From positions 15,594-79,593 of IMG/VR virus record IMGVR_UViG_3300036981_000286: a DNA stretch of 64,000 bases. One strand, given 5' to 3'. The stretch's first letter is position 1; each line of letters opens with the position of its first letter. The notes below the pieces were generated by a model, which worked only from the letters and a program-made list of their open reading frames with translations, was not told the origin of the DNA and ran no database searches. The position numbers and the translations under genes were made by a program. Shown in pieces: positions 5,028 to 38,323 of the stretch. Source of the stretch: a virus.

Positions 5028-6539
5028 ATGTCTGCGCCAGTTTACGTAGCGTTTCATCACGGCCTAGGAGATTGCGCAAATTTTGCGCACCAAGTGCTGC
5101 TGTATCGCCGCCGCGGCGTTGATCTGGTGGTTGTGTGCGCAAAAAACAAACGCGCGGTCTTCGACGCCATCGGCGTTCCGACGCAACTAACTACAGAGAA
5201 CGGGGCGGCTCGGCCGCATCCGTGGTACGAGCCTAACCGACACCGCGCGTTAGGTCCGGATGACTTTTTGGCTGAGAATAAAATTCGGCGAAATTTTTGC
5301 AGTCCGCCGATGCCTCCGCGCGTCAAAGCCACCACTGAGCTTTGGGACGAGTATCTCGAAAATCGCGACTTGCTAGCGTTTAAATCTTACGCCGAACGCG
5401 TGGCGCCAATTGTGGCCGATCTGCAGCGCCCAATTACGTTAATTCACGCGCAGGGCAACACGTCGGCGTCGGAAAAAAACATGCCGCCGGATATGGCTAG
5501 CGACATCGCGCGTATCTTGCTGTCAAACACGACCGGCTCCGTTATCTTTCTAGATTGGGATCACAGAACATCGTGGTTTCACTCTGCGCGCTCACGGCAC
5601 ATTTTGTATCACTACGATCGTAAACTTACTGGCCCCGACGCGCTTGTTGGGTTGATCGGCCTTGCCGATTTAATAATTGGCGTAGATAGCGGTCCGTATC
5701 ATCTGGCCGGCATGATTGACGCGCCGTCGTTGGGCGTGTGGTTCGGCCACAATCCGGCAAATTACGCTATTCCGCGCAAAAATTGCGTAAACATTGTTCG
5801 CAATCAAGTTGAATTAAATACAGCCAGCGCGCATATGTACAACACTGTGCCGCAGTCTGCGATTACTGCGGAGTACGTGGCGCAAGCAGCGCAGCTTATG
5901 CTCGCCCCGCCGCGCTGGATTGAGGCAAATCAGGCGCATGATGTACAGCTGCAGCTTTGCACAAAAAAGTGCGATGGCGGCGTATTAGGCGTTGCGCACG
6001 CGCCCAACGTGCTTGTTGACCGCCACTTGAGTTTTGGCCTGATCTTCGACCATTTGGCCGCTCGTTGTCGCCCACCGGTCATGGTCGAGACGGGCTGTAT
6101 ACGTTCTGACAACGACTGGGCCGGCGCCGGGTACTCAACGTTTTTATTTGGTTTATTTGCGCAACGCCTAAAAGGCCGGCTGCTCAGCATCGATTTAAGC
6201 CTTACGCACAGCGCGTATGCCGCCCGTATTTGCAAGAACCTCGCCGCAGTCACAACCAAGTGTGCCGACTCGTTGGTCGCGCTGCGAGAAATAAATGAGC
6301 CAGTAGATCTGTGCTATCTCGACAGCATGGACACGTACGTCGCCGGCCATGAAGAGCACGGCCTCGCGGAAGCCCAACTCTGCGCTGATAAGGTAGCGCC
6401 CGGTGGTCTGATTGTATTTGACGACACGCTGTACGAAGGCGCGATGTGCCGCGGCAAGGGCGCGAAAGCCGTCCCGTGGCTGCTGAACAATGGGTGGCGT
6501 ATTTTATTCGCCGGCCATCAGGTAGTACTTACGCGTTAA
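5028..6539 (+). CDS. GT9-like (GT-B) glycosyltransferase fused to a class I SAM methyltransferase
   Basis: HGLGD and DLIIGVDSGPYHLA (GT9-like); VETGCIR, DLCYLDS and GGLIVFDD (Methyltransf_24-like). Confidence 0.75.
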   Translation: MSAPVYVAFHHGLGDCANFAHQVLLYRRRGVDLVVVCAKNKRAVFDAIGVPTQLTTENGAARPHPWYEPNRHRALGPDDFLAENKIRRNFCSPPMPPRVKATTELWDEYLENRDLLAFKSYAERVAPIVADLQRPITLIHAQGNTSASEKNMPPDMASDIARILLSNTTGSVIFLDWDHRTSWFHSARSRHILYHYDRKLTGPDALVGLIGLADLIIGVDSGPYHLAGMIDAPSLGVWFGHNPANYAIPRKNCVNIVRNQVELNTASAHMYNTVPQSAITAEYVAQAAQLMLAPPRWIEANQAHDVQLQLCTKKCDGGVLGVAHAPNVLVDRHLSFGLIFDHLAARCRPPVMVETGCIRSDNDWAGAGYSTFLFGLFAQRLKGRLLSIDLSLTHSAYAARICKNLAAVTTKCADSLVALREINEPVDLCYLDSMDTYVAGHEEHGLAEAQLCADKVAPGGLIVFDDTLYEGAMCRGKGAKAVPWLLNNGWRILFAGHQVVLTR

Positions 6540-8974: not shown

Positions 8975-9979
8975 ATGGCAAAAGGTTTAGACGTTGGTAC
9001 ATCGTTCATTGTCCTCGCGAAAGACGGCGCAGAGGGCAACGTGGACTACAAAGACTTTCGCGACGCGTTTTACGCAATTAAGCCGACCACGCCAGTCGCT
9101 ACCAAAATGATTGAAAAGGGGCTTGCCGGCAAAGTATTCGTAAAAGACGAGGACGGTACCTTTATTCTGCTCGGGCAGGACGCAATCGAGAAAGCCGTTG
9201 AGCGCAATGACTCGGCTAAGCGCCCGATGTACCGCGGCGTTGTTAGCCCTAAAGAAAAAGACGCAAAACGCGTATTAGCTTTTATTCTGCAAGAAGTCGT
9301 GGGCAAAGCCGACGAGGCGGACGAAAAGATCGTGTTCTGTATTCCGGCGCAACCCGTGGATCAAGAAGACACAGATTTTGACGTTGGGTACCACGAAGAC
9401 GTCGTTAAGCTTATTTTGTCTGGGGCCGGCTATCTTGCGCGGGCTATTAACGAAGCTGAGGCGCTGTGCTACTCAGAATTTGAAAACGACGATTACACCG
9501 GTATTGGCTTATCCTTCGGCGCCGGTATGGTAAATGTATGCGTAATGCTTAGCGGCGAGCCTACTGTGATGTTTTCGACAACCAAATCCGGCGACTGGGT
9601 TGATCGAATGTCGGCCGTGGCTGTTAACGAGCCTGATAGCGTTGTGCAGGCGGAAAAAGAGCACGGCGTGTTTCAAGTAGGCGAGCCAAACGAAAATCAC
9701 ATTTTGGCTGCTGTGTCGGCGTATTACGACCGACTGATTGACTACACCACAAAGCAACTTGCCGCGGCGCTAACCGGGCACAAGTCACTACCAAAGTTTA
9801 AAGATCCGCTACCTATTGCCGTAGCGGGCGGAACATCAAAAGCTGCAGGTTTTGTTAAATTATTTGCCGAAAAACTGGCTGCAAATGGGTTCCCGCTGGC
9901 CGTTAAAGAAGTTAGGCATGCAGCGGATCCGCTTCACGCAGTTGCCAGAGGCTGTTTGATTGCCGCGAAAATTTTGTAA
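8975..9979 (+). CDS. Actin-fold ATPase (MreB/MamK/FtsA-like)
   Basis: Phosphate-1 GLDVGT, connect-1 INEAEA, phosphate-2 SFGAGMVN, adenosine VAGGTS, connect-2 DPLHAVARG. Confidence 0.85.
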   Translation: MAKGLDVGTSFIVLAKDGAEGNVDYKDFRDAFYAIKPTTPVATKMIEKGLAGKVFVKDEDGTFILLGQDAIEKAVERNDSAKRPMYRGVVSPKEKDAKRVLAFILQEVVGKADEADEKIVFCIPAQPVDQEDTDFDVGYHEDVVKLILSGAGYLARAINEAEALCYSEFENDDYTGIGLSFGAGMVNVCVMLSGEPTVMFSTTKSGDWVDRMSAVAVNEPDSVVQAEKEHGVFQVGEPNENHILAAVSAYYDRLIDYTTKQLAAALTGHKSLPKFKDPLPIAVAGGTSKAAGFVKLFAEKLAANGFPLAVKEVRHAADPLHAVARGCLIAAKIL

Positions 9980-9998: not shown

Positions 9999-10218
9999 TG
10001 TTGTAAGTTAGTCGTGGTGGCCGACTGGTTAGGGAAGCAGCTCGTACAACAGGGATGTTTTACGGGCTGACAGGAATCCGTGGTCAGGCTTTGGCCGCGC
10101 TCACGGTTGGTGGAGCAATGAATGCCGCACGAGGTTGAGTTTACGCCTTAGAAAGTCATTGCATGCCTCGTTTCGACGAGGTCCGGGCCTGTGGAGGGGA
10201 TCACAGGAGCTTACAACA
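9999..10218 (+). ncRNA. Candidate 220-nt multibranch RNA, GGA-rich (possible Csr/Rsm-type decoy)
   Basis: An 11-bp closing stem (9999-10009/10208-10218) encloses six hairpins, including GGGA and TTCG loops. A TAAACT -10-like hexamer lies at 9988-9993. Confidence 0.65.
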
Positions 10219-10258
10219 AATACACACACAAATTTTACATAACTTACTAGGTAGCAAC

Positions 10259-10609
10259 GTGTTAGACGAATATTTTCATTCGTTAGCTGTGTTTGCCAGC
10301 GCATTCGGGGTCGCGGCCTTTGCCGGGCTAGCGACATTTTTGCGTTTCGCCCGAAAACTCTCTAAACTGGCGTTAATAAGCGCGATGTTAAACGCCGGGT
10401 TTCTCGGCCTAGCCGTCGCACTTTTGTGGTATCAAAACTACCGAAACGCCGAAAATGTAAGTGGCTTAATTGGGATATGCGTATTAGCGGGTATGGGCGG
10501 ATCAACTGTTACTGACATTTTAATTTCTATCCTGTCTGGCGCTGGAATTAAAGTAATTATTCACCACGAGCGAGATCGCGATGACACACTCCGTAACGAT
10601 GACGCTTGA
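10259..10609 (+). CDS. Putative holin (3 TM, LydA-like)
   Basis: Three hydrophobic segments and a charged C-tail. GTG 10259 is preferred because the track start at 10163 lies inside the RNA structure. Confidence 0.55.
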   Translation: MLDEYFHSLAVFASAFGVAAFAGLATFLRFARKLSKLALISAMLNAGFLGLAVALLWYQNYRNAENVSGLIGICVLAGMGGSTVTDILISILSGAGIKVIIHHERDRDDTLRNDDA

Positions 10610-10766: not shown

Positions 10767-10838
10767 TGCCCGATGGCGCAACGGTAGCGCGGAGCACTGT
10801 TAATGCTTAGGTTCTAGGTTCGAATCCTAGTCGGGCAG
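10767..10838 (+). tRNA. tRNA-Asn (anticodon GTT)
   Basis: Acceptor stem TGCCCGA/TCGGGCA, anticodon arm GAGCA-CTGTTAA-TGCTT, GGTTCGAATCC T-arm. Confidence 0.95.
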
Positions 10839-10843
10839 CTGGA

Positions 10844-12778
10844 GTGAGTATGGATGGCATATCTTTTTTACAGCCGCTATCTCCTGAACTGCAGGAAGTT
10901 TTCTACGCGCGCGGACACGCACACGGCTGTGTAGCGCTTAATTGCAAAACTGCTGCTACAAACTATCATCTTGCCGGCCGCCTGTACCTGTCTAAAAGCG
11001 GCTGGCTGCTGCTGTCAGTGCCGAACGCTTTCGTGCGGGGTCTGTTTTCGGCGTTAACCGCGCCCGGCGCTGAGCTCCCGATCGCAGGCCTCATGAACGT
11101 CACCGGGGTGGCTGAAGACGCGTTAAATGCGCATATCTCGGTGCTCACGGCCGATGAGGTGGCGGCTATCGGCGCGGACAAGATTAATGAACGCGGGCAA
11201 ATGTTCAACTACGGGCTCGGGCCTGTAAAGGAAATACCGGTTAGCAACGTAGACGGTATTAGCCGCGTCTGGGCTGTGCAAGTTGTTAGCCCCGCGCTGA
11301 CCGCGCTCCGCAAAAGTTACGGGCTAACGCCGCTCCCGCACGGCGACCACGCATTTCATATCACGATTGCTTGCCGCCGTAGACGCGTTCTTGGCAATAA
11401 TGCCGTAAGTAAATTTGACGCTGCGTCTGGCCGCGGCGAGCTGAAGGCCGCATCTGACGATAAAACAACTTACGACTGCTGTTGTTCTGGTGCGTGCACC
11501 TGCCCCGCGACATGTGTTTGTAAAAAGTTTGGTTGTTGCAGTGTGCGCAAGACTGCAGCGCACGAAGGCGCGCCGTGGGATACGCCGGCCGACAAGTTAC
11601 CGTGGCGCGAACGCGTAGAGGTGTACGCGCACGACCCTAAAGGCCGCATTTACGGCGGAATTTGGAATACAGACAAATCTTTTGCTGTTCCGGGGGGCGG
11701 TATAGACCCCGGTGAAGATCCCGGGCAAGCGGCGATTCGCGAGCTTGAAGAAGAGACCGGCATAAAAGCGACAAATCCGCGTGTATTGCCGGTAGCTCCG
11801 GTAGACAATGCGTGGAGCGAAAAACATCGCCAAGAAAAACAGCGCAATTTTGCGGGGTCTCGCACTCATTTCGTCGCGGTGGACATTCTTAATAAGTTGC
11901 AACGAAAAAATCTTGATAAGTGGGACGCAGCCCAGCGCAAGATGTATGACCCGTCCGCAGCAGCGGAAATGATGGCAGGCCACAAAAACTTTATGGCGCC
12001 AAGTGTCGCCGCCGGCCGACTCGCGGCCTTGCGGCATATTATTGCTAACGCCGCTAAAAAGACAGCCGCCGATTTACTTCTAGGCGGAGCAGCAGACAAC
12101 AAACCAGATTCAGATTTTCCGGCAGATAAACTCCAAGAGGGCACAGAACATGAGCGAGAACATACCGACAATGATCAAATCGCCAAAGAAATTGCCAAGG
12201 ATCATCTGCAAACAGAACCCGCCTACTACACGCACAAAGAACAAAAAGAAGCGGTAAATAAAATACCCGCAATCATCTTGCAGCTACGTGCCGCCAAAGA
12301 ACATTCTGACGCTAAACGATACGATCAAAAGAATGCTATCTTACGTGAATTAATGCTTAAGGCGCCGAACGAGTGGTATGTCGACGACCCGCTGCCGCAT
12401 CACATGGGCGTCACGCATGACCCCACTAAATTCAAGTTCCACGCCGACCCGACTATTATCCCGCCTGACGTAAAGGTGCGGGCAAAAGCAGCTGAAGCTG
12501 AGCCGTATTTAGCGCAACTTAAAGCTACGCCGGTCGCTTACAGCAAAGACGAATCGGTATGGCGAAATTTCGTAAAGCATTTAATGACCGTAAAAAATAG
12601 AGGCGACAATCAGCTGCATATGCAGGCAAATACTGAAAGCTGGCGCAAAACACTAGACCCGGCTTACCGGCATCAGCAAAATATGGCATTAGCTCGCGGT
12701 GAGGCTCCTAAACAGCCCGGCTTCGCGACGCAGATGATTAACCGTCACGGAGGCAACGTACTCGCTGCGTTGTCATAA
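10844..12778 (+). CDS. Multidomain polyprotein: 2H phosphoesterase, Cys-rich peptide, Nudix hydrolase, DUF5661-like domain
   Basis: AHISV and FHITI (2H); CCCSGACTCPATCVCKKFGCC; complete Nudix box GGIDPGEDPGQAAIRELEEETGI; EGTEHEREHTDNDQIAKEIAKDHL. Start is 10844 (GTG) or 10850 (ATG). Confidence 0.8.
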   Translation: MSMDGISFLQPLSPELQEVFYARGHAHGCVALNCKTAATNYHLAGRLYLSKSGWLLLSVPNAFVRGLFSALTAPGAELPIAGLMNVTGVAEDALNAHISVLTADEVAAIGADKINERGQMFNYGLGPVKEIPVSNVDGISRVWAVQVVSPALTALRKSYGLTPLPHGDHAFHITIACRRRRVLGNNAVSKFDAASGRGELKAASDDKTTYDCCCSGACTCPATCVCKKFGCCSVRKTAAHEGAPWDTPADKLPWRERVEVYAHDPKGRIYGGIWNTDKSFAVPGGGIDPGEDPGQAAIRELEEETGIKATNPRVLPVAPVDNAWSEKHRQEKQRNFAGSRTHFVAVDILNKLQRKNLDKWDAAQRKMYDPSAAAEMMAGHKNFMAPSVAAGRLAALRHIIANAAKKTAADLLLGGAADNKPDSDFPADKLQEGTEHEREHTDNDQIAKEIAKDHLQTEPAYYTHKEQKEAVNKIPAIILQLRAAKEHSDAKRYDQKNAILRELMLKAPNEWYVDDPLPHHMGVTHDPTKFKFHADPTIIPPDVKVRAKAAEAEPYLAQLKATPVAYSKDESVWRNFVKHLMTVKNRGDNQLHMQANTESWRKTLDPAYRHQQNMALARGEAPKQPGFATQMINRHGGNVLAALS

Positions 12779-12779
12779 A

Positions 12780-13085
12780 ATGGCTGGCCCTGTCATAACA
12801 AAAATCATAGATTGGTTTACGCCAAAAAAGGTAGAGCCTGATCCGGCACCCGCGCCGGCACCAACACCGCCGGAACCAGAAATTCCCGCAATCCGCCCAA
12901 GCAATCTGCAGTTCGTAAACTACATCCGCGCCTTGATGATCTTGCAACGTATCCCAATAACAAAACTAAAAAAAGAGCTTGCAAAGTTACCGTGGCTCGA
13001 CATCGCGTATTTGTGCGGCATTTTTATTTGGGTTTTTATGTCTTGTTTATTTGTAGTGCAACTTTGGCGAACGTTTCTGTCATGA
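12780..13085 (+). CDS. Hypothetical membrane protein
   Basis: PA-rich N-part, C-terminal TM segment, coupled to neighbours. Confidence 0.6.
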   Translation: MAGPVITKIIDWFTPKKVEPDPAPAPAPTPPEPEIPAIRPSNLQFVNYIRALMILQRIPITKLKKELAKLPWLDIAYLCGIFIWVFMSCLFVVQLWRTFLS

Positions 13086-14122
13086 ACACTCCACCGACAC
13101 AACTTACTCTCGCGGAGTGGCAGCAAGTTCCTGCGCGCGTGCAGGCTCTCTTGCCAACAGCTTGCGCGTTACAGTTAATGCATAACAAGGTAGCTAGCGA
13201 GACTGGCATCCTGGCTATTGCAACAATTAGCTGGCAACCTGAGAAAAATGAAATATTTGTACATACGCCAAACCGACTGTCGACTCGCGTAAAAGAAGCG
13301 TACGCAAATACGCTACATGCCGGCGTGCCAATTTTGTTTACGCAAACAACCCCGGACGGCACACATAGTGTTTTAATTAAGCAAGCCAGCATGACGAAAA
13401 CTATTGGCGCTGGCTGGAACACAGCAAATACGGCCCTTGGCGGCCCGACCCCGCTATCAAACGCTATTGTGTCGAGCCTGCTTCTTGGCGGAATTGGTTA
13501 CGGCGCCGGCACGTTAGCCGAGCAGTTATTTCCAGAGCGTTTTTTAGAGCCGGGGCAATTACGAAAACCGTTAGGGATCGCCGGCGGTTTAATTGGATTA
13601 GGTTACGGAGCGTTAAACGCCGGAGAAACTCGGCGGCAAATCCCGGGTACGGGTTATTTGGACTCTTGGGTAACCAGCAACAACGCCAAGCTACCAAACG
13701 AGCAACCGCCTGTCCCCGGAAAAAAGGCGAATTTCTTTGGCGCCGATAAAATGCAAGGCAACACTGGGTTATACGCCCCGACTATCCCTGTAGACGCGTT
13801 TAACCGCGCTGTCTGGGCTGACGCCAGCAAAGGCTACAGTCAAGCCGGTATTATCCCGCACACGAGCCCAGCGGTAGCTGCGGCCACTACCGGTTTAATG
13901 ACAGGGCTTTCTACTCAGGCGCGGTCCTCTATTATTAGCCCGGCTACTGTTATTACCGGTTTAGCTTCTGCGGGCGTTGGTTTAGCCACGGCAAGTATTG
14001 CTGGGCGGACGCTCGGGGCGCTGGCTGGTTTAACGCCTATGGCCCAAGAAAAAATTCAAGATGCCGGGCTGTGGGCTGGCATGTTACACGCCGTCGTGCC
14101 GCCGCTTTTTGGCATGCGGTAA
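13082..14122 (+). CDS. Glycine-zipper hydrophobic protein, probably virion-internal
   Basis: ATGA overlap at 13082; several GxxxG helices; NKVAS, IKQAS, GKKAN sites. Confidence 0.6.
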   Translation: MNTPPTQLTLAEWQQVPARVQALLPTACALQLMHNKVASETGILAIATISWQPEKNEIFVHTPNRLSTRVKEAYANTLHAGVPILFTQTTPDGTHSVLIKQASMTKTIGAGWNTANTALGGPTPLSNAIVSSLLLGGIGYGAGTLAEQLFPERFLEPGQLRKPLGIAGGLIGLGYGALNAGETRRQIPGTGYLDSWVTSNNAKLPNEQPPVPGKKANFFGADKMQGNTGLYAPTIPVDAFNRAVWADASKGYSQAGIIPHTSPAVAAATTGLMTGLSTQARSSIISPATVITGLASAGVGLATASIAGRTLGALAGLTPMAQEKIQDAGLWAGMLHAVVPPLFGMR

Positions 14123-15001: not shown

Positions 15002-15817
15002 ATGGCAAAATCAAAATCAGAACAAAAAAACGTTTTATCAGCAACAGAGATACTCAAGCGGCTGCAGAAGCTTGGTTACTTCGGTAGCCAGTCGTGGGCG
15101 CAGATTAAAAAAATTAGCGGCAAGTCATTAGAAGCCGTTGTTCGCGAGTATCAGAATTTTCACGGTCTTGAGCCGACCGGCATTGTGGGCCCGCGTACGG
15201 CGCACGTCATGGCCCGCCACCGCTGTGGTTTGCCGGACTTTAATATCACGAGCAAAGATAGCGTGTGTAAATGGCCGCATAAAAACATTACGTATCACTC
15301 TAAATTAGTGCTGCCCGGCATTACTGATGTGCAGGCTACGTTGGCGTTTGACGCGGCTATTATGCAGTGGGCTAATGTGTGCGCCATCGAGCCCGTGCGT
15401 GTAGACGACGTTAATCAGGCAAACATTTACGCGCGGTCTGGGAAAGGCCGCGGCGTGAACCTAGACGACCGCGGCGGCACACTCGCGTGGAGCGAGCTGC
15501 CGTGCGGTGTTACGCCAAACATGCAACTTGACCAGATGTACGACGAGGCGGAGGAGTGGACTTTTGACATGGCAGTAGCCGTTACCTGCCACGAACTTGG
15601 ACACGCGCTTGGTTTAGCGCACCTCGGCCGCGGTAACTTAATGGCGCCCTACTACGACCCAACTGTCACCAAGCCGCAAAAAGGCGACATCGACGAGATG
15701 GTAAAACTTTACGGCAAAGTCAGTAAAAACACACAAAAAAAGAACAAGGGCGTTGTAGACGTTAGCGGCACAATTTTAATTAATGGAAAACCATATCGGC
15801 TTGTGCCACAGTTCTGA
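15002..15817 (+). CDS. Matrixin (M10 zinc metalloprotease) with a PG-binding-like prodomain
   Basis: HELGHALGLAH, Met-turn LMAPYY, cysteine switch HRCGLPD, YQNFHGLEPTGIVG. Confidence 0.9.
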   Translation: MAKSKSEQKNVLSATEILKRLQKLGYFGSQSWAQIKKISGKSLEAVVREYQNFHGLEPTGIVGPRTAHVMARHRCGLPDFNITSKDSVCKWPHKNITYHSKLVLPGITDVQATLAFDAAIMQWANVCAIEPVRVDDVNQANIYARSGKGRGVNLDDRGGTLAWSELPCGVTPNMQLDQMYDEAEEWTFDMAVAVTCHELGHALGLAHLGRGNLMAPYYDPTVTKPQKGDIDEMVKLYGKVSKNTQKKNKGVVDVSGTILINGKPYRLVPQF

Positions 15818-20784: not shown

Positions 20785-23700
20785 ATGCCACTTCCCGAAC
20801 AGTCAAACTCGATCCTAGGACCGCAGACCCGAGAATTCGGCGACGTTAACGCGTTACGTCAAAATATCTTTCAGCAATCGCAGCAGTCTGCAATTGGCGT
20901 AGCGCCGTTCGAGCCCGTTTTTACTCGAGAAGATATTTTTAATACTGCGGCTACTCAAGCCCGCGGTATTAAACCGGTCCAGAATGATCTGTATACGCTC
21001 AGCCTCGGCGATGTGGGTTACGAAGGCCCCGAGCGGTTTACAAAAAAAGATCACAAGCAAGCTGTGCTTTCTCACGGCTCCCTCGCGCGAAAGCTGCGCG
21101 GTACGTGGAACCTGACTGACAATAAAACGGGAACTGTTATCGCTCAGAAGCGGTCAACGTTGGCTAACGTGCCGTACATGACCGACGCTGGTACGTTTGT
21201 GCATAACGGCGTGGAATATACGCTGGCCCATCAGATGCGACTTCGCCCGGGCGTATACACCCGCGAAAAAGACAACGGCGAACTTGAAGCGCATGTAAAT
21301 GTGCTCCCCGGAAAAGGTCGAATGCACCGATATTATCTTGACCCCAAAACGGGTGTATTCAAGATCAATATCGGACAGGCGCAAATTCCGCTTATGCCGC
21401 TGCTCAAAGCGCTCGGCACTTCGGAGCAAGATATTCGCAAGGCGTGGGGCAACGAGCTTACCGCCGTGAATATGGAAAAGGGCGACGCCGGCACGCTAGA
21501 CAAGCTGTACAGCCGGCTTGTCTACAAAGCCATACCCGGAATTGACGCCCCGGGAAAACAAAAAGCCATCGCCGACGAGTTTTTAAAAATGGAGATGGAT
21601 CCCGAGGTGACAAAGCGCACGCTTGGCGAGCCTATCAAAAATTTAACGCCTGACGCCATTCTCAAGATCACGAAGAAGCTGATTGCCGTAAACCGGAAAG
21701 AGACCGAATCAGACGACCGCGACAGCATGGCTTTTCAACAAGTTCTTGGCCCTGAAGATTTAATTGCTGAGCGCTTCTCAAAAGATAGGGCCATGCTGCG
21801 GCAATTGCTATGGAAAGCCACGGCAAAGAAAACACTCGATCATGTACCGACTGGTGCGTTTAACAAAGCGATCGTGGCTGCGCTTATTGGTAGCGGTCTC
21901 GGGTCTAGTCTTGAGGAAATCAACCCGGCGGAAATTTACGACCACCAAACGCGGGTTACCAGATTAGGCGAGGGTGGCATTGGCTCGCTTGACGCCGTGC
22001 CGCAAGAATCGCGCAGCGTGCAGCCGAGTCACTTCGGGTTTGTAGATTATCTCCGCACGCCGGAGTCTGGAAAAGTCGGCGTGGACATGCGGTTCGCCCG
22101 CGGAGCAGTAAAAGGCTCTGACGGCAAGGTCTACATGAAAGTAAAGAATCTGAAGACAGGCGAGCTTGAGTACAAGTCGCCGCAGGACATTGCTGATATG
22201 CCTCTCGTGTTCCCGGGTGAGGATAAAAGCGACCTCCCGACCGTGGCCGCAATTGTTAACGGCAAGATGAAATACATTCCGCGCGATCAGGCGCAGTACA
22301 TGGCTCCAAATATGGATGCGTCATTCTCGACGTTGTCTAACATGGTGCCGCTTAAATCCATGATGAAGGGGCATCGCGTTATCATGGGTTCGCGCATGTT
22401 TACGCAGGCGCTGCCCCTTGTTGGCGCTGAATCGCCGTTTATTCAATCAGCCATTGCCGACGACCCTTCGCGCTCGTACGAAGACGATATGGGCAAGAGC
22501 ATGGGCGCCGCATACGCCGACGAGCTTTCGCAAGTTGTATCTGTTACGCCAGACGAGATTGTTTTACGCAATAAAGACGGCGAGCAAAAAACAGTTGAGC
22601 TTTACAATGACGCGCCGTTTAACCGAAAAACTTTCTGGACACAAACAGCAGCGGTAAAACCCGGCGACACAGTTAAACCCGGCCAGCTTATTGCTCAGTC
22701 AAACTTTACAGACAAGAACGGCACCGCAGCGCTTGGTTTAAATATGCGCGTGGGTTACTTACCGTTTCGAGGGCTTGTGTACGACGACTCAGTGGTGATA
22801 TCTGAGTCGGCAGCAAAGCGCCTGACATCTGAGCACATGTATCAGCACGAAGCCGAATCGGACGACAACACGCACATAGACAAGAAGAAATTTATTAGCT
22901 TGTTCCCGAGTGAGTACGACAAAAAAACTTTAGATAACTTTGACGATAATGGCGTAATTAAAAAAGGCGCTGTTGTCACGTACGGCGACCCGCTTATTCT
23001 CGTGAGCAAAGCGCGAGAAACCACATACGGACAAGTGTTTCGCGGCAAGTCGGCTAACTTCACCAATGACTCTGTTACTTGGGAGCACCACTCGCCGGGC
23101 GTTGTTACAGACATCGCTAAAACAAAACACGGCTACAGCGCAATTGTTAAAAGCAAAGCCCAAATGGAGGTAGGCGACAAACTTACCGGGCGATTCGGTG
23201 ACAAGGGTGTCGTGGCTGGGATTATCGCTGACGATCAAATGCCGCAGGATGCGCAAGGCCGCCCAATGGAGGTGCTTGTCAGCCCGCTTGGTTTAGCCAG
23301 CCGAATTAATCCGTCGCAGATCGTAGAGGCAGCGCTCGGTAAAGTAGCTGAGAAAACTGGGCAGCCGTTCAAAATTAAAGATTTTGACGACCAGACCGAC
23401 CTTATCGATTTTGCTAAAGCAGAATTACGAAAACACCAACTCACAGATCTTGAGGATGTTACTGATCCCGAGACTGGGCGCAAAATTAAAGGCGTGCTTA
23501 CTGGTAATCGTTTTTTCATGAAACTGCACCACACGAGCGAAAGCAAAGCGCAGGGCCGGTCTACTGGCGGATACACGGCTGAGGGCGCGCCAGCCAAGGG
23601 CGGGTCCGAAGGCGCTAAGCGCGTCGGCATGCTCGATCTGGGCGCTTTGCTCTCGCACGGCGCCGGTCAGGTTATTCGTGACGCCAAAATGGTTCGCGGG

Positions 23701-25233
23701 CAAGCTAATCCGGAATACTGGTCGCAGGTAATGGCGGGCTATACGCCGCCGCTTCCAAAGATTCCGCAAGTTTACACAAAATTCGTTGAGCAGCTTCGGG
23801 GCGCAGGCATTAACACCGTGCGCGAAGGCACAAAGACGCACATCATGGCGTTGACCGACAAAGAAATTGACAAACTCACCGGCGACCGCGAAATACAAAA
23901 CGCCGATACGGTTGATTGGAAATCTGGCTTGCGGCCTAAAACTGGTGGGCTTTTTGACGAAAGTCTGACCGGTGGCCATAACGGTAATCGCTGGGCTAAG
24001 GTCACCCTGCACGAGCCCATGCCGAATCCGGTTATGGAAGAGCCAATTAGGCGCACTCTTGGGCTTACTGAAAAAAAGTTCAGAGATATCTTAGCCGGCC
24101 AAGAGAAGCTTAACGACGAAACCGGTCCAATGGCTATTAAGAACGCGCTAAAGCGTATTAATGTGCCTAAAGCTATAGAGCAGGCGCGTCAAGATATTCA
24201 GTCCGGACGCAAGGTCGCCCGGGATGCTGCCGTCCGCCGATTAGCCTTTTTAAAAACCTCAGAAAAAACTGGCACACACCCCGAAGAGTGGATGTTGACC
24301 AAGATGCCGGTAATACCGCCAGCGTTTCGGCCCGTCTCGACGATGGGGCAGAAAAAACTACCGCTCGTTGCCGACGCAAATTATTTGTACAAAGAATTGC
24401 TCGACGCAAACTCTGTATTAAAAGATTCTGCTGGCGTACTTACCGACGTGGGCAACGAACGGCTAGGGCTGTACGACGCAATGAAGGGCGTGACTGGCAT
24501 GGGCGACCCTGTGCAGGCCAAGAACGTCGAGCGGCGTGTGCGCGGCTTTTTATCTCAGATTTTTGGAAGCTCGCCAAAGTACGGCACTGTGCAACGCAAA
24601 CTTCTCAGCTCAACTGTGGATCTTGTTGGTCGCGCTGTAATTACACCTAATCCGGATTTGGATATGGATCAGGTCGCCCTCCCCGAAGAAAAAGCGTGGG
24701 AAATTTATAAGCCGTTTATTGTGCGCGGGCTGGTTCGTCGTGGGTTACCGCGCATGGAAGCAATTAAGTCGTTTGACGACAAAAACAATATGGCTCGCGG
24801 TGAATTAAACCAGCAAATGAGTTCTCGGCCAATTATTATTAATCGCGCTCCGGTACTGCACCGTTACGGCATAATGGCGTTTTATCCGCGCCTTACTAAA
24901 AATAAAACAATGGAAGTGAGCCCGCTCGTAACCAAGGGTTTCGGCGCTGACTTCGACGGCGACGCCATGCAATTCCATGTGCCGAGCACTGACGCCGCGG
25001 GCCGAGAAGCCGCTGAAAAAATGCTGCCAAGTCGTAATTTATTTGCGGCGTCAACGTTTAAGGGTCATTACACCCCAGTAGCGGAATTACAGTCTGGCCT
25101 GTATGTTGCTTCCAACCGGATTAACAAGAAGTCGCCCACGCGGGTCTTTAAATCCGCTAAAGATGCTATTGCCGCTTATCGGCGTGGCGATATTGAGGTC
25201 GACACGCCGGTGCATATTGTGGAGAATGATTAA
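20785..25233 (+). CDS. rpoBC: Phage multisubunit RNA polymerase: beta subunit fused to the N-terminal half of beta-prime
   Basis: Beta motifs: GTFVHNG, RLGEGG...HFGFVDYLRTPES, YDDSVVISE, GDKLTGRFGDKG, MKLHH. Beta-prime motifs: GGLFD, PVIPPAFRP, GRAVI, NRAPVLHR and the catalytic ADFDGD. Confidence 0.95.
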   Translation: MPLPEQSNSILGPQTREFGDVNALRQNIFQQSQQSAIGVAPFEPVFTREDIFNTAATQARGIKPVQNDLYTLSLGDVGYEGPERFTKKDHKQAVLSHGSLARKLRGTWNLTDNKTGTVIAQKRSTLANVPYMTDAGTFVHNGVEYTLAHQMRLRPGVYTREKDNGELEAHVNVLPGKGRMHRYYLDPKTGVFKINIGQAQIPLMPLLKALGTSEQDIRKAWGNELTAVNMEKGDAGTLDKLYSRLVYKAIPGIDAPGKQKAIADEFLKMEMDPEVTKRTLGEPIKNLTPDAILKITKKLIAVNRKETESDDRDSMAFQQVLGPEDLIAERFSKDRAMLRQLLWKATAKKTLDHVPTGAFNKAIVAALIGSGLGSSLEEINPAEIYDHQTRVTRLGEGGIGSLDAVPQESRSVQPSHFGFVDYLRTPESGKVGVDMRFARGAVKGSDGKVYMKVKNLKTGELEYKSPQDIADMPLVFPGEDKSDLPTVAAIVNGKMKYIPRDQAQYMAPNMDASFSTLSNMVPLKSMMKGHRVIMGSRMFTQALPLVGAESPFIQSAIADDPSRSYEDDMGKSMGAAYADELSQVVSVTPDEIVLRNKDGEQKTVELYNDAPFNRKTFWTQTAAVKPGDTVKPGQLIAQSNFTDKNGTAALGLNMRVGYLPFRGLVYDDSVVISESAAKRLTSEHMYQHEAESDDNTHIDKKKFISLFPSEYDKKTLDNFDDNGVIKKGAVVTYGDPLILVSKARETTYGQVFRGKSANFTNDSVTWEHHSPGVVTDIAKTKHGYSAIVKSKAQMEVGDKLTGRFGDKGVVAGIIADDQMPQDAQGRPMEVLVSPLGLASRINPSQIVEAALGKVAEKTGQPFKIKDFDDQTDLIDFAKAELRKHQLTDLEDVTDPETGRKIKGVLTGNRFFMKLHHTSESKAQGRSTGGYTAEGAPAKGGSEGAKRVGMLDLGALLSHGAGQVIRDAKMVRGQANPEYWSQVMAGYTPPLPKIPQVYTKFVEQLRGAGINTVREGTKTHIMALTDKEIDKLTGDREIQNADTVDWKSGLRPKTGGLFDESLTGGHNGNRWAKVTLHEPMPNPVMEEPIRRTLGLTEKKFRDILAGQEKLNDETGPMAIKNALKRINVPKAIEQARQDIQSGRKVARDAAVRRLAFLKTSEKTGTHPEEWMLTKMPVIPPAFRPVSTMGQKKLPLVADANYLYKELLDANSVLKDSAGVLTDVGNERLGLYDAMKGVTGMGDPVQAKNVERRVRGFLSQIFGSSPKYGTVQRKLLSSTVDLVGRAVITPNPDLDMDQVALPEEKAWEIYKPFIVRGLVRRGLPRMEAIKSFDDKNNMARGELNQQMSSRPIIINRAPVLHRYGIMAFYPRLTKNKTMEVSPLVTKGFGADFDGDAMQFHVPSTDAAGREAAEKMLPSRNLFAASTFKGHYTPVAELQSGLYVASNRINKKSPTRVFKSAKDAIAAYRRGDIEVDTPVHIVEND

Positions 25234-26206: not shown

Positions 26207-28087
26207 ATGTTAAAAACAACGCTTGGCCAACTTCTGATAAACAGCGCGCTCCCGGCGGATATGCGCGACTACAATCGCGTATTAACAAAGAAAAACGTGA
26301 TTGACCTCGCTACTGATCTTGCCACGCGGTACCCAGACAAGTACCGCGAGGTGATGAAGCAGATGCAAGACATCGGCTCTGAAACCGCGTACACGACAAA
26401 CGGCATGTCTGTTGGCTTAGACGCAATCACGCCGTCGATTGCCGCGCGAAAAAAGCAGCAGGAAATTAAACAAAAATTGCGCGGCGTGCTGTCCGACGCG
26501 CGCCTTGACGACAAATCGCGAAACCTCAAAATACTTGAGTTATCGTCGCAGGCTCAAAAAGAACTTATCGACATTGTTTACAAAGACGCTGAAGAGCAAG
26601 ATAACCCGCTCTTTCATCAAGTGTCGTCTGGCGTTAAGGGAAATAAATTTCAGCTTAATAGCATTCTTGGCGCCGACATGCAGTACGTAGATCACCGCAA
26701 CGAGCCAATTCCAATTCCGGTGATGCACGGCTACAGTCAGGGCTTGCGTCCTGTAGAGTATTTTGCCGGAGCGTTCGGCACGCGCAAAGGTTTGATGGAC
26801 TTAAAAACCGCAACATCTGACGCTGGCTTTTTTGCCAAACAGTTAACGCAAATGAATCACAGGTTGCTTGTTACGTCTGACGATGAGGATCAGCCTGAGT
26901 TACTAGCCGGCGCCGATAATCGCGGCTTTCCGTCGGACGTTGACGATGTAGATAACGAAGGGGCGCTATTGGCCAGAGCCTCAGGTCCGTACAAACGGAA
27001 CACGGTGCTTACGCCAAAAATCTTAAAAGACCTAAAGCAACTTGGCATCAAAGACATACTTGTGCGTAGCCCCACGGTAGGCGGCCCGGCGGATGGCGGT
27101 GTGTACTCTAGAGACGTTGGGTATCGCGAAAAGAACCGGCTACCGCCGATTGGTGATTATGTCGGAATCGCCGCCGCCCAAGCATTAGCTGAGCCGGTCA
27201 CACAAAGCCAGATTTCGTCTAAACACTCTGGCGGCGTGGGCGGAGCTGGCGCTATTTCTGGATTTAAAGCTCTTAACGCTTTAGTTCAGGTACCGGAAAA
27301 ATATCCCAGCGGGGCCACGCACGCGCAGCTAGACGGCGCGGTACAGGAGATTCGACCAGCGCCACAGGGCGGTCATTACGTCATCGTTGCCGGAAAAGAA
27401 CATCACGTTCCAACAGACGTGGCGCTTAAAGTTAAAAAAGGCGATGTACTTGAGGCTGGTGACGTGTTGTCAGAGGGCATGCCCAGCCCGGCCGAAATAG
27501 TCAAATACAAAGGCGTCGGAGAGGGTCGCCGTTACTTCGTACAGGCCATGAAGCAGGTACTCGGTAATAGCGGAATCACAGGACATCGGCGTAACATTGA
27601 ATTGTTATCCCGCGGACTCATTAATCATGTCCGGTTGACCGACGAATACGGCGATTACGTGCCAGACGATATCGTGCCGTATTCTATGCTGGAGCGGTCA
27701 TGGCAGCCGAGAACCGGCAGCGTCCACGGTAACCCAAAAAGCCTAACTGGACATTATTTAGAAAAGCCGGTGCTGCATTACTCAATTGGCACTAAAATTG
27801 GCAAATCTGTTTTAGACAACTTTGACAAATACGGCATCAAAGACATTGAAGCCCACAAAGAGCCGCCGCCGTTTGAGCCCGAGATGGTGCGGGGTATGGC
27901 AAGCGCTACTACAGACCCGGACTGGATGACGCGCATGATGGGCTCGTATCAGCAAAAAAGCTTATTAAACGCTACACACCGCGGTGGCGTGAGTGACACG
28001 GCTGGCAGCAGTTTTGTGCCTACTTTAGCCCGCGGAGAGACGTTTGGCCTGTCGGGCGCGACTGCCGGATGGCAATCGCAACCATAA
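26207..28087 (+). CDS. rpoC: RNA polymerase beta-prime C-terminal half
   Basis: TTLGQLL; SGVKG; bridge helix EYFAGAFGTRKGLMDLKTATSDAGFFAKQL; trigger loop GIAAAQALAEPVTQSQISSKHSGG; RRNIELLSR. Confidence 0.92.
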   Translation: MLKTTLGQLLINSALPADMRDYNRVLTKKNVIDLATDLATRYPDKYREVMKQMQDIGSETAYTTNGMSVGLDAITPSIAARKKQQEIKQKLRGVLSDARLDDKSRNLKILELSSQAQKELIDIVYKDAEEQDNPLFHQVSSGVKGNKFQLNSILGADMQYVDHRNEPIPIPVMHGYSQGLRPVEYFAGAFGTRKGLMDLKTATSDAGFFAKQLTQMNHRLLVTSDDEDQPELLAGADNRGFPSDVDDVDNEGALLARASGPYKRNTVLTPKILKDLKQLGIKDILVRSPTVGGPADGGVYSRDVGYREKNRLPPIGDYVGIAAAQALAEPVTQSQISSKHSGGVGGAGAISGFKALNALVQVPEKYPSGATHAQLDGAVQEIRPAPQGGHYVIVAGKEHHVPTDVALKVKKGDVLEAGDVLSEGMPSPAEIVKYKGVGEGRRYFVQAMKQVLGNSGITGHRRNIELLSRGLINHVRLTDEYGDYVPDDIVPYSMLERSWQPRTGSVHGNPKSLTGHYLEKPVLHYSIGTKIGKSVLDNFDKYGIKDIEAHKEPPPFEPEMVRGMASATTDPDWMTRMMGSYQQKSLLNATHRGGVSDTAGSSFVPTLARGETFGLSGATAGWQSQP

Positions 28088-28151: not shown

Positions 28152-28167
28152 GCCGCATGGAGGTGGC
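28152..28167 (+). promoter_or_regulatory. RBS hairpin with ANGGAN hexaloop
   Basis: GCCGC-ATGGAG-GTGGC before the in-frame GTG at 28169. Confidence 0.55.
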
Positions 28168-28168
28168 T

Positions 28169-30571: not shown

Positions 30572-30581
30572 TAGGTGAAAA

Positions 30582-30977
30582 ATGGCTGGCACTATTTGGT
30601 CTGGCGAAACAAGCTTTTCGGCGCCCTCCGCAACAGAAACAGTCGTGACGCTAAAAGTACCGCATCGCGGCGTGCTGCGTGGCTATAGCCTGACGCAAAC
30701 GTCTGGCGCGAACGTTGGGGCATCGGCGGCGTTATTCACAAGCAAGCAAGATACAGCGCCAAATTCCACACTGCCTGCCGAGGCGTTCCACATACTAGAC
30801 ATCACACTTGGCTCTACCAGCAAGGTAGACAATCATGATCTAAACGTGGCGTACTTAAATCGCGACGGTTCTCCGACTAATGCTCAAAGATATCTTTACT
30901 TGAAAATCACACCTGCTGGTTCTGGCATCAAGAATTTCGTGATGTCTGTAACGATTGAAACCCCGACGCTGCGATAA
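30582..30977 (+). CDS. Hypothetical beta-rich protein
   Basis: AGGTG RBS; TAATG coupling. Confidence 0.7.
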   Translation: MAGTIWSGETSFSAPSATETVVTLKVPHRGVLRGYSLTQTSGANVGASAALFTSKQDTAPNSTLPAEAFHILDITLGSTSKVDNHDLNVAYLNRDGSPTNAQRYLYLKITPAGSGIKNFVMSVTIETPTLR

Positions 30978-31906: not shown

Positions 31907-31909
31907 CGA

Positions 31910-33244: not shown

Positions 33245-33251
33245 GGACGTT

Positions 33252-34427: not shown

Positions 34428-34428
34428 C

Positions 34429-35904: not shown

Positions 35905-35946
35905 CAAACGCCGACATAAAATGTGCGGTGTACAAAGGAGACAACT

Positions 35947-37236
35947 ATGGCACGGATGCAACGTTCGCTCTTCGCGCAACTAAACGCGCTGGCTGAAGAA
36001 ATTTCTCAGAACGCGGAAAAGGTCGCGGCTGCTAAGCAAGCCTCGCCGGTTCCCGCTGACCCGGGTGGGTATCAGGGCGCATCGACGCACCCCAGCGCGC
36101 ACGTTGATAACGATGTGCAGAAGGCGACGACGGGCGCTCGTGCATCTGAGTACGAGGCGGACGTTAAGAAGCAGCAGGGCGCGCTCGCTGTAGATAACAC
36201 ACCTGAGATGTCGCAGGAAGGTCGTCAGGATGATGTTCAATTAAACATCAACACCAACGCCGCTGCGACAGGCGAAGATCCGGCCGCTGAAAAAGATTAC
36301 AAGGGTACGAAAGACGACCCGGGTACATCGCATCCCGCCAAGACCAACGACGGCGAGAAGTACAGCCACGTATCGTTTAAAGAAGCTCACACCAAGTGCA
36401 GCAATCTTGGTAACGAGATTCTGGCTGACCTCGTCAACTTCGGAACAGCTACTTTTAAAAAGGCTGAAAAAGACGTTGCCGAAGCGGTGACAGGAAAAAA
36501 AGACAATAGCGGCAATTTAAAGGGCAACCAAAACAAGCTCGACGTCGATAAGGACGGCAAGCTCGAGGGTTCCGACTTTGCCGCGCTGCGTAATAACGAC
36601 AAGGCTGCCGCTTTTTCGGCCGGCTACGAGTTAGCCGCTGCGCTTGGTATGGATAAGGCTGCGGCCGAGGCCAGTGTCCGCGACGTATGCGCGAACACGC
36701 TGCGCGAAGCTGACGAAATGGCTGATCTGTTCGTTGGGTTCTACACAGCGAAGCAGGCTGACGACGCCGCCGCTGAAGAAGGCGAAGATCACGCCGAAGA
36801 AGGCGAATCCGAGGGCGGCGAAGAAGCGCCAGCTGTTAGCGTTGAAGAAATGATGGGCGGCGGGGCCCCGGCCGGTGAGCCCGGACTTGAGCAGGCTCCT
36901 CCGTCGGAAGACGAGGCGCTGCAAGAGCTGGCGATGGCGTTACAAGAACTAGGCATTCCGCCGGAAGCGCTGCTGCAGGGTCTTGCGGGCGAGGCCGGCG
37001 GCGAGGGAGCGATGGCTCCTGAAATGGCCCCCGAGATGGCTCCTGAGATGGCTCCTGAGATGGCTCCTGAAATGGCCCCGAAGATGGCGGCCGCTCGAGA
37101 GCTGCAAATGATCGGTAACGCTGTTATTAACTTTCAGAGTTCCGGTAATTTTCAAGTCAAAGAGGCTCGCACCAAGCGGTCGCGCCATCTGCGAGATATC
37201 ATGAAAGATCATGTGCGCGAACTCGTTGGTCGCTGA
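35947..37236 (+). CDS. Acidic scaffold-like protein
   Basis: AAGGAG RBS; acidic and low-complexity; EF-hand-like DVDKDGKLEGSDF; many K-x-A sites; between protease and capsid. Confidence 0.6.
   Translation: MARMQRSLFAQLNALAEEISQNAEKVAAAKQASPVPADPGGYQGASTHPSAHVDNDVQKATTGARASEYEADVKKQQGALAVDNTPEMSQEGRQDDVQLNINTNAAATGEDPAAEKDYKGTKDDPGTSHPAKTNDGEKYSHVSFKEAHTKCSNLGNEILADLVNFGTATFKKAEKDVAEAVTGKKDNSGNLKGNQNKLDVDKDGKLEGSDFAALRNNDKAAAFSAGYELAAALGMDKAAAEASVRDVCANTLREADEMADLFVGFYTAKQADDAAAEEGEDHAEEGESEGGEEAPAVSVEEMMGGGAPAGEPGLEQAPPSEDEALQELAMALQELGIPPEALLQGLAGEAGGEGAMAPEMAPEMAPEMAPEMAPEMAPKMAAARELQMIGNAVINFQSSGNFQVKEARTKRSRHLRDIMKDHVRELVGR
37012..37083 (+). repeat. 12-bp tandem coding repeat (MAPE x5 + MAPK)
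   Basis: Units of the form ATGGCYCCNGAR. Confidence 0.9.
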
Positions 37237-37254
37237 ACTTAAACGGAGGTTTCC

Positions 37255-37677
37255 ATGCCTGATACGAATCAGTTAGTTCAAAAAGTCATCGACTACATCG
37301 GTTTTTCCGATGCCGCGATGAGCAAGGCTGCGTCGGTGCTCGCTAATCGCGACGCGCAGCAAGAGAAGATTGCTCAGTTAATTCCCGAGGCTGTGAAGGC
37401 GTGCACTGAAAACGAGCGCATCGAATCGCACCAGAAGGAAGCGCTGGCCGCTGCTCTGCAAGACCCAGTTCGCGCTATGGAACTGGTCATTAAGTTAGCG
37501 TCGCACAAGAATGCCGCCGAAATGGCCCGCATTGGTGCGCCGATAACGCAGAAGTCAGCTGGATATGATCCGAATACCAGCGTCACAAGCTCGTACGTGG
37601 GAGCTCGTGACGGCAAGCTCAGGGCAAGTGACATTAAGTTGTTCACAGGTCTTGGTCTTAATCCGCCCACGAGTTGA
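37255..37677 (+). CDS. Small head-module protein
   Basis: GGAGG RBS; SKAAS, EKIAQ, IKLAS, QKSAG. Confidence 0.7.
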   Translation: MPDTNQLVQKVIDYIGFSDAAMSKAASVLANRDAQQEKIAQLIPEAVKACTENERIESHQKEALAAALQDPVRAMELVIKLASHKNAAEMARIGAPITQKSAGYDPNTSVTSSYVGARDGKLRASDIKLFTGLGLNPPTS

Positions 37678-37703
37678 TTTCTAATACGTTACTTCACCAC
37701 CAA

Positions 37704-37721
37704 TAAGACACGGAGGTCTTA
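37704..37721 (+). promoter_or_regulatory. RBS hairpin with ANGGAN hexaloop
   Basis: TAAGAC-ACGGAG-GTCTTA, perfect stem. Confidence 0.65.
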
Positions 37722-37723
37722 CA

Positions 37724-38284: not shown

Positions 38285-38303
38285 CTAACTCTTTAACTTC
38301 ACC

Positions 38304-38319
38304 GGAACACGGAGGTTCC
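38304..38319 (+). promoter_or_regulatory. RBS hairpin with ANGGAN hexaloop
   Basis: GGAAC-ACGGAG-GTTCC before the capsid ATG at 38324. Confidence 0.65.
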
Positions 38320-38323
38320 AACA

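Follow-up and report, generated by a model that had tools for sequence, protein, structure and literature searches.

Lys-x-Ala linkers in a multi-enzyme polyprotein of an uncultured Arash-related phage: a candidate head cargo probably processed by the prohead protease

In a 64,000-nucleotide stretch of viral DNA (positions 15,594 to 79,593 of the IMG/VR record IMGVR_UViG_3300036981_000286), hereafter called the window and used for all coordinates unless stated otherwise, an open reading frame (ORF) at 10844-12778 (+) encodes a polyprotein in which unrelated enzyme modules follow one another in a single chain. The modules are joined by linkers that carry the tripeptide Lys-x-Ala (K-x-A), and the same motif is enriched in the proteins of the head module of this phage, an uncultured myovirus of about 200 kb that belongs to the clade of Salmonella phage Arash. 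On balance, we favor the view that the polyprotein is a polyvalent effector carried as head cargo and cut by the prohead protease into separate enzymes. The precursor would be built into the prohead, where the prohead protease would cut the K-x-A linkers, either after Ala or after Lys; the freed enzymes would then leave the capsid with the DNA and, right at the onset of infection, would have nucleotides or RNA ends as their targets. We infer incorporation into the head, cleavage and the exact bond that is cut, ejection, and every substrate; the interpretation of the motif as a cleavage code is well supported by indirect evidence.

Since 2017, genomes have been known to encode polyvalent proteins, and the question addressed here is how one chain can deliver many activities. 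The present analysis adds a linker code of the Lys/Ala type, its specificity for the head module both in an uncultured clade and in a cultured relative, and the exchange of cassettes at this code within a fixed genomic slot.

Modular organization of the polyprotein

The ORF encodes 644 amino acids when counted from the GTG codon at 10844 and 642 when counted from the ATG codon at 10850. The ATG codon is most likely the true start, since a GGAG sequence is located 5 nt upstream of it, the homologues begin with MDG, and a tRNA-Asn gene ends at position 10839. This tRNA gene (anticodon GTT, 10767-10839, +) terminates four bases before the GTG codon, and the Shine-Dalgarno sequence of the polyprotein follows directly after it. 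All residue numbers given here are counted from the GTG codon at 10844.

As shown in Table 1, the chain consists of a leader, a 2H-SAK phosphoesterase, a Cys-rich peptide, a Nudix hydrolase, a DUF5661-like part, a helical module with a small beta part and a helical tail, and the cassette anatomy proposed in the initial annotation is as described, with the domains now assigned by Pfam. The leader is a candidate propeptide or capsid-targeting segment. The 2H-SAK family PF22547 was matched at residues 95-181 (E-value 3.7e-9; 37.3 bits against a cut-off of 27), and both of the H-x-S/T motifs that define 2H enzymes are present, as H97-I-S and H172-I-T. In at least 90% of 88 homologues H97, H172 and T174 are kept, and the histidines are invariant or nearly so in 25 distant homologues, in which the domain closes with the sequence ..SKAA. 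Judged by these motifs, the 2H-SAK domain is catalytically intact. The Cys-rich cassette, 35 residues long, has a metallothionein-like C-x-C / CC pattern with the consensus Y.C.C.G.C.CP..C.C...C, and it is gained or lost as a unit among the homologues.

The Nudix cassette was matched by PF00293 at residues 279-373 (E-value 4.7e-13; 49.7 bits against a cut-off of 21.1), and its sequence GGIDPGEDPGQAAIRELEEETGI fits the Nudix box G-x5-E-x7-R-E-U-x-E-E-x-G-U. The fold is supported by the predicted model, for which VIA-align gave a Z score of 14.3 to NUDT6 (root-mean-square deviation, rmsd, 2.7 over 122 residues) and 100 chains with a Z score of at least 8 over residues 238-407. The match to DUF5661 (PF18905, residues 428-467) scored 25.9 bits, just below the cut-off of 27, and most of the close homologues have a precomputed PF18905 assignment. 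The helical and beta module follows the 2H-SAK domain even in distant short homologues, where it can be recognized by the pattern AKH..IL..L... G[IV]TH.PT.F[KR][FL]H. The tail maps as a single cassette, tail[2-94], in the homologues.

Table 1. Modules of the polyprotein, head-module genes and counts of the K.A[ASG] pattern in groups of proteins. Positions are those of the window; AF2, AlphaFold2; pLDDT, predicted local distance difference test.
Feature	Position (strand)	Residues	Remarks
N-terminal leader	10850..10954 (+)	3-37	helix 14-33; ends K35-T-A; K kept in 64 and A in 77 of the 88 homologues
2H-SAK phosphoesterase cassette	10955..11452 (+)	38-203	PF22547; ends K201-A-A
Cys-rich mini-cassette	11453..11557 (+)	204-238	10 Cys; low pLDDT; ends K236-T-A
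Nudix hydrolase cassette	11558..12067 (+)	239-408	intact Nudix box; ends K406-T-A
DUF5661-like helical cassette	12068..12253 (+)	409-470	ends K468-E-A; most homologues have IEK[AT]A.P there
Helical + small beta module	12254..12493 (+)	471-550	AF2 helices 476-506, strands 511-534; ends K548-A-A
C-terminal helical tail and stop codon	12494..12778 (+)	551-644	AF2 helices 554-643
Probable portal protein, 804 aa	28157..30571 (+)		opens the K-x-A-rich head module; weakly similar to Arash gp218, which stands at the start of the orthologous module
Prohead (capsid maturation) protease, 491 aa	34429..35904 (+)		fold at residues 16-237; candidate cutter of the K-x-A linkers
Acidic scaffold-like protein	35923..37236 (+)		several conserved K-x-A sites, e.g. 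GMDKAAAE
Major capsid protein, 309 aa	38324..39253 (+)		GMQK-Q-A near the N-terminus (residues 22-27)
Head module	28157-40006		K.A[ASG] 28 observed, 8.7 ± 3.2 expected, z 6.1
Tail and baseplate proteins			K.A[ASG] 9 observed, 8.7 expected
RNA polymerase region			K.A[ASG] 2 observed, 3.7 expected

K-x-A motifs at the module joints

The motifs KTAA, KAAS, KTAA, KTAA and KAAE, named in the initial annotation, are located at positions 35, 201, 236, 406 and 548, respectively. In addition to these, we found a sixth linker motif, K468-E-A, which separates the DUF5661-like part from the helical and beta module. The previously noted coincidence of the motif with the domain junctions is therefore borne out, with six of the seven K-x-A tripeptides of the polyprotein falling between modules; the seventh, K496-N-A, is located inside a helix and is not a linker. 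The tetrapeptide KTAA occurs five times in the proteome of 25.4k residues, and three of these occurrences are within the polyprotein ORF. The pattern K[TAS]A[ASGET] was observed five times in the polyprotein, against 0.48 times in shuffled sequences (p about 1e-4).

In the AF2 model of the polyprotein, which was built on the 88 homologues and has a mean pLDDT of 78, pLDDT falls below 50 at residues 1-11, 185-211, 232-239, 407-414, 470-473 and 548-551. Of the six linker motifs, five are inside or at the edge of these segments of predicted disorder, between confidently modeled domains, and the remaining one, at position 35, is in a pLDDT dip with a block mean of 56.

The six K-x-A sites are encoded by different codons, so that the peptide is what is under selection, and not a DNA motif; on the same ground, a conserved DNA word such as a recombination site was rejected as the origin of the motif. 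Compositional or helical bias was likewise tried as a cause, and was rejected by per-protein shuffles and control patterns.

The motif is conserved among the homologues, with K and A retained in more than 100 of them around a variable x. In the alignment of the 88 sequences, K and A are kept in 64-80 of them at junctions 35, 201, 406 and 548, with T, Q, A or S in the variable position between them. At junction 236, the Cys-rich cassette is absent in 52 of the 88 homologues; the remaining 36 carry it, and 34 of these have kept K. When a set of 143 cluster representatives (at most 50% identity) was analyzed, the motif was observed 223 times against 39 expected, its usual places being directly behind the 2H-SAK domain (..SKAA..) and behind a short helix at the N-terminus. 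A Pfam scan of nine large distant proteins placed all but one of about 30 motif sites outside the matched domain stretches, the exception being site 14 of protein P0225, which lies within a sub-threshold Gly-zipper match.

Exchange of cassettes at the motif in a fixed genomic slot

The initial annotation had predicted domain shuffling at the linkers among homologues, and this is what we found: cassettes are lost, added and replaced at K-x-A. When the homologues are cut at K-x-A, the resulting pieces map end to end onto the cassettes of the polyprotein. The Cys-rich cassette is missing, by exactly 35 residues, in P0015, P0019, P0021 and others, and the flanking motifs merge there to GELKAAAHE; junctions of this kind, left by the deletion of a cassette, are compatible with several cut registers. 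The Nudix cassette is missing in P0066, and both the Nudix and the Cys-rich cassettes are missing in P0089. A P-loop kinase cassette of 187-190 residues is found in P0020, P0083 and P0111, in the last two of which it replaces the Nudix cassette, and extra cassettes were also observed in P0039 (GNAT) and P0029 (two Nudix).

Large insertions and deletions (indels) relative to 120 homologues were then located with respect to the motif, with the reservation that they do not count as independent events in phylogenetic terms and that some of them are not clean. At least one end falls within 6 residues of a motif in 94 of the 122 indels, and both ends are near a motif in 23 of the 122, against 1.1% under random placement.

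This exchange takes place at one position in the genome. The slot was found in 52 related loci in the order volactin gene, gene of a 148-aa protein, polyprotein gene, gene of a 376-aa protein, and onward to a matrixin gene; across these loci the length of the polyprotein ranges from 372 to 857 aa and the neighbors stay in place.

In more distant chains led by 2H-SAK, the partners include InPase, LigD 3'-phosphoesterase, ATP-dependent DNA ligase, SNF2 helicase, SET, GNAT and C39 peptidase domains. This is the classic repertoire of polyvalent proteins, with a flavor of nucleic-acid end repair. Several unrelated effector domains in one phage chain, together with rapidly varying architectures, are also the features by which polyvalent proteins are recognized.

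Specificity of the motif for the head module

Alignments of eleven head-module proteins from 64 related loci were used to analyze the motif outside the polyprotein. A scan of 12 alignments for conserved-variable-conserved tripeptides, made with no prior choice of motif, placed KxA first, with 17 cases against 1.5 expected; the runner-up was LxA, with 6 cases. As shown in Table 1, the pattern K.A[ASG] is in clear excess in the head module, and in the remaining genes of this phage it is at expectation. The same was found in Arash, whose head module contains 28 K.A[ASG] sites against 6.2 ± 2.2 expected (z about 10) and whose tail and metabolic genes are at expectation. Control patterns (the reversed motif, R.A, E.A and K..A) gave 2-10 occurrences in the same proteins. 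At site 245 of the scaffold-like protein, K is kept at 0.91, x at 0.23 and A at 0.91 in 47 homologues. The capsid protein is 28-30% identical to the annotated major capsid protein gp226 of Arash, and its motif is kept in 48 relatives. The 804-aa protein is probably the portal, judging from its size and position; a phmmer search with it against the PDB sequences gave no match.

The candidate processing protease

The prohead protease gene is located just upstream of the scaffold-like gene, and the capsid gene follows 2.4 kb downstream. No named family was found for its product in Pfam, PHROGs or NCBIfam, and the Pfam S77 and S78 prohead-protease models had no match in the 79.6-kb record; the protein is recognized by its fold only. 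The AF2 model of its first 260 residues (34429-35208) has a predicted template modeling score (pTM) of 0.75. The top three Foldseek matches of this model were to T4 gp21 (5jbl, probability 0.97-0.99), followed by herpesvirus proteases, and VIA-align gave Z scores of 8.8 to gp21 (142 residues, rmsd 3.6) and 6.4 to the varicella-zoster virus protease, with unrelated folds from 5.2. Residues H62 and S164 are invariant, and the protein is 37% identical to gp222 of Arash. A conserved K246-A-A is located in a predicted disordered stretch just past the end of the fold (around residue 237), an arrangement that would be expected of a self-releasing protease. Herpesvirus maturation proteases cut at x-x-A/S, and a Lys at P3 with an Ala at P1 would resemble this register.

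As for the idea of a head-protease code, it has gained the head-specific enrichment in two distant phages, the gp21-like protease with its own K-A-A and the conservation of K and A around a variable middle residue, and cleavage itself is what these observations suggest.

Possible functions of the enzymes

The initial annotation had suggested that the enzymes destroy immune second messengers, citing the T4 anti-CBASS protein Acb1, and had named the repair of RNA ends as an alternative for the 2H domain. We consider RNA-end processing and the destruction of immune signals to be about equally likely, the former having been strengthened by an RppH-like Nudix cassette and by a fusion to an RNA polymerase subunit. 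The link to Acb1 (gene 57B) holds at the level of the superfamily only. Like Acb1, the 2H-SAK domain has two conserved H-x-S/T motifs, from which the chemistry of the 2H superfamily can be predicted; Acb1 is a free-standing protein of 152 residues, whereas 2H-SAK opens a multi-domain chain. When a 25-sequence 2H-SAK profile was compared with Acb1 by hhalign, the probability was 1.4%, over 38 columns around one H-x-T motif. The 2H-SAK profile gave nothing significant against the PDB sequences, and Foldseek and VIA-align, run on the whole 644-residue model, returned only Nudix folds.

With the same architecture and processing, the payload might act on RNA ends, which we regard as a serious possibility that falls short of probable. 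In this case the Nudix enzyme would be a 5'-end pyrophosphohydrolase or decapping enzyme of the RppH/NudC type and the substrates of the 2H enzyme would be 2',3'-cyclic phosphate or 2'-5' ends; the enzymes could support the virion RNA polymerase of the phage itself, trigger the decay of host mRNA or heal cleaved RNAs. The best Foldseek matches of the polyprotein model are structures of E. coli RppH (E-value 1e-7; template modeling score 0.59-0.68 on the target chain), and the best NCBIfam match of the Nudix cassette is the RppH model NF001938. In P0185, a protein of 2577 aa from another phage, a Nudix cassette 51% identical to that of the polyprotein is fused to a fragment of the RNA polymerase subunit beta', and in distant chains the N-terminal 2H-SAK domain has the LigD 3'-phosphoesterase and ATP-dependent DNA ligase as fusion partners, i.e. 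enzymes of end healing and sealing. The lack of detectable kinship of 2H-SAK with T4 Acb1 points in the same direction. On the other hand, the RppH model scored 34 bits, far under its equivalog cut-off of 116. Moreover, the VIA-align scores of the ADP-ribose (ADPR), NDP-sugar, ApnA and NADH pyrophosphatases differ by no more than one Z unit; the Nudix fold therefore does not resolve the substrate, nor does it separate RNA from ApnA, ADPR and NADH pyrophosphatases. Section 20 of PMC5512222 states that in polyvalent proteins 2H domains are never found together with RNA ligases, and it favors a role as RNase or in the degradation of signals.

P0185 has two further features: its beta' fragment is interrupted by Hint/intein domains, and K-T-A-G is found directly after its Nudix cassette.

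Alternatively, the released 2H and Nudix enzymes could destroy defense nucleotides (those of CBASS, Thoeris, Pycsar and type III CRISPR, and ADPR derivatives) before phage gene expression, a reading that we hold to be possible, if somewhat doubtful. Both enzymes belong to classes known or predicted to degrade such signals (sections 20-21 of PMC5512222; section 21 of PMC9503650). The hypervariable cassette content of the fixed slot described above would fit an arms race, as would the nature of the cassettes that are swapped in, i.e. the kinase, GNAT and an extra Nudix. This reading is weakened by the negligible hhalign probability for Acb1, by the closest Nudix matches, which are RNA and ApnA hydrolases, and by the fusion partners of 2H-SAK elsewhere, which are enzymes of DNA and RNA ends.

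Arguments against head cargo and alternative explanations of the motif

Several observations weigh against a packaged and processed polyprotein. Arash has no 2H-SAK gene, and its virion proteome is therefore uninformative on the polyprotein. The polyprotein gene and the head module are about 16 kb apart, the gene lying upstream in the company of genes with no assigned role, and none of the 21 large distant homologues that were scanned is fused to MuF, a portal or a head protease. The RNA polymerase genes show no enrichment of the motif, although their orthologues are abundant in Arash virions (PMC10585845), and packaging is therefore not marked by the motif in every case. In the capsid protein the motif is followed by Ile or Val and not by a small residue. 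Finally, the residue two before Lys is Leu, Met, Ile or Phe in 28 of 33 Arash sites, which makes the bond ambiguous, as a T4-like hydrophobic-x-Lys register with a cut after Lys fits as well.

Some of these points would be expected if the polyprotein were an ordinary cytoplasmic multi-domain enzyme, neither packaged nor cut, in which K-x-A is a favored hinge or docking motif inherited together with the cassettes. The location of the gene outside the head module and K496-N-A, which sits inside a helix and is clearly no linker, both agree with such an enzyme. We nevertheless think it unlikely. A hinge would not account for a motif that is enriched only in head-module proteins, and this in two phages with capsid proteins only about 28-30% identical, nor for a Lys that is not replaceable by Arg and a spacing that is exact. 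Nor would it explain the constancy of K and A amid drifting x and flanking residues, or the presence of the motif right behind the domain of the protease itself.

Cutting of the linkers after Lys by a trypsin-like serine protease of the phage (L001:8892-9725 in the coordinates of the record; Trypsin-family Pfam match with an E-value of 1e-16; His/Asp/Ser motifs TAAHV, HDIAL and GDSGG) instead of by the prohead protease is very improbable and was rejected, since, although an invariant Lys would fit a trypsin-like cut, the protein has an N-terminal signal peptide and is probably exported, the residue six before the catalytic Ser (by simple counting the position of Asp189 in the S1 site of trypsin) is Leu and not the acidic Asp, and the head-module specificity of the motif would be left unexplained.

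Comparison with known systems

The polyvalent proteins of phages and conjugative elements were described by Iyer, Burroughs, Anand, de Souza and Aravind in 2017 (PMC5512222). The protein analyzed here is like them in that one polypeptide carries unrelated effector domains, and its relatives carry the hallmark 2H, InPase, SNF2, SET, GNAT, LigD and Nudix domains in varying order. The packaging and injection of polyvalent proteins had already been predicted, and their 2H domains had been proposed to degrade signaling nucleotides (section 20 of PMC5512222; section 21 of PMC9503650); for some members, self-cutting by embedded peptidase domains was proposed as well (PMC5512222). Unlike those proteins, for which the sections concerned of PMC5512222 describe no shared short linker signal, the polyprotein has a head-specific K-x-A at every joint, and on this account it resembles a true polyprotein.

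The second comparison is with the prohead proteases of the T4 type and of the phiKZ/SPN3US type, which recognize a two-position code and cut many head and ejection proteins at the corresponding short motif, namely (L/I)-x-E in T4 and (S/A/G)-x-E in phiKZ and SPN3US (PMC5694885, PMC10052503). As in those phages, a protease with the gp21/assemblin fold is encoded beside the scaffold and capsid genes (PMC5694885, PMC10052503, PMC9026906), and one short motif is common to head proteins, the protease and enzymes presumed to be packaged. The leader that ends in the motif resembles the capsid-targeting sequence of T4. The differences are that the signature is Lys-x-Ala-small instead of the x-Glu sites of T4 gp21, phiKZ gp175 and SPN3US gp245, and that the candidate cargo is predicted to be cut at five or six internal joints and not trimmed at one end. 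Our literature search found no paper describing a Lys-x-Ala prohead-protease motif, and nothing relevant for '2H-SAK' or 'DUF5661'.

With Arash, the phage shares an orthologous capsid protein, the prohead protease (37% identity), the fused RNA polymerase (32%) and the concentration of K-x-A in the head. The published virion proteome of Arash is tryptic and reports coverage only (PMC10585845), for which reason processing sites are unmapped in it. A further parallel is offered by the Dar proteins of P1 (DarA, DarB and DdrB), large enzymes that a targeting signal brings into the head and that are delivered against host defense, some of them being proteolytically processed (PMC9024508). They differ from the polyprotein in being separate gene products, and the P1 capsid protein is cut at E120/S121, which is a Glu-type site and not K-x-A.

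Tentatively, these comparisons can be taken further. K-x-A-small may be the code of a previously uncharacterized specificity class of gp21-like proteases, by means of which any cassette placed between linkers would be loaded, released and injected, in Arash-like jumbo phages and, more widely, in phages with 2H-SAK polyvalent proteins. Such a plug-and-play cargo system would explain the free exchange of cassettes, including the 35-residue Cys-rich metallopeptide, at one genomic slot.

Source phage and genomic neighborhood

The window makes up the right-hand 64 kb of one 79.6-kb record, which is 39% complete according to CheckV and which is a fragment of a phage of about 200 kb, since its relatives are found on contigs of 190-235 kb. 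The record encodes a tail sheath, an RNA polymerase, a volactin-type actin and two tRNAs. The closest cultured relatives are Arash (OQ632216, 181 kb) and three Vibrio phages, with 27-28% identity in the capsid protein and 32% in the RNA polymerase. A tblastn search with the polyprotein against 50,697 phage records gave no match, and a Megablast search with 25 kb of the sequence matched only a tRNA.

Upstream of the polyprotein gene, the volactin-family actin homologue (8975-9979, +; PF25216, E-value 1.9e-63), whose Pfam family is named after an archaeal actin, is syntenic in 47 of the 52 related loci. The genes of the 148-aa protein, which has hydrophobic segments (10163-10609, +), and of the 376-aa Gly/Ala-rich protein (12992-14122, +) flank the polyprotein gene in 51-52 of the 52 loci. 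Gly-zipper domains were also found within the distant 2H-SAK polyvalent proteins P0220 and P0225. Further downstream is a fusion of a matrixin (M10) metallopeptidase with a peptidoglycan-binding domain (15002-15817, +), possibly an enzyme of lysis or entry, and a fusion of a glycosyltransferase-9 with a methyltransferase is encoded at 5028-6539 (+).

In the RNA polymerase, the beta subunit is fused to the first part of beta' (20785-25233, +), and the remainder of beta' is a separate gene of 626 aa (26207-28087, +). The fused protein is 32% identical to Gp206 of Arash, and in the virions of that phage Gp206 ranks, together with the beta' subunit Gp216, with the most abundant proteins (PMC10585845).

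K-x-A-type sequences were also observed in other large proteins. Upstream of the window, the record encodes a second polyvalent protein (L001:10214-13198, 994 aa) composed of an SNF2 helicase, DUF6321 and DUF4236, with the sequence KKTAAFDFGK between Helicase_C and DUF6321; the similar sequence EKTAAYKFGK is found in a Gly-rich protein of 388 aa (L001:4643-5809). Gp4 of Arash (L067:2528-5821, 1097 aa), which has the second-highest spectrum count in the published virion proteome, has five sites of the K-A-A type and is possibly a processed head or cargo protein.

Conclusions

A shared linker code provides a testable model of how one chain could deliver many activities, consisting of the loading of a precursor, its cutting by the capsid protease and the release of the enzymes, and the code can be tested in the cultured relative Arash. 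If the model is true, a specificity of the Lys/Ala type would be added to the Glu-type sites of the T4-like and phiKZ-like proteases, and the motif would offer a natural design for loading foreign proteins into phage heads. It would also give a rule for predicting the virion cargo and the mature protein ends in hundreds of uncultured phages of about 200 kb.

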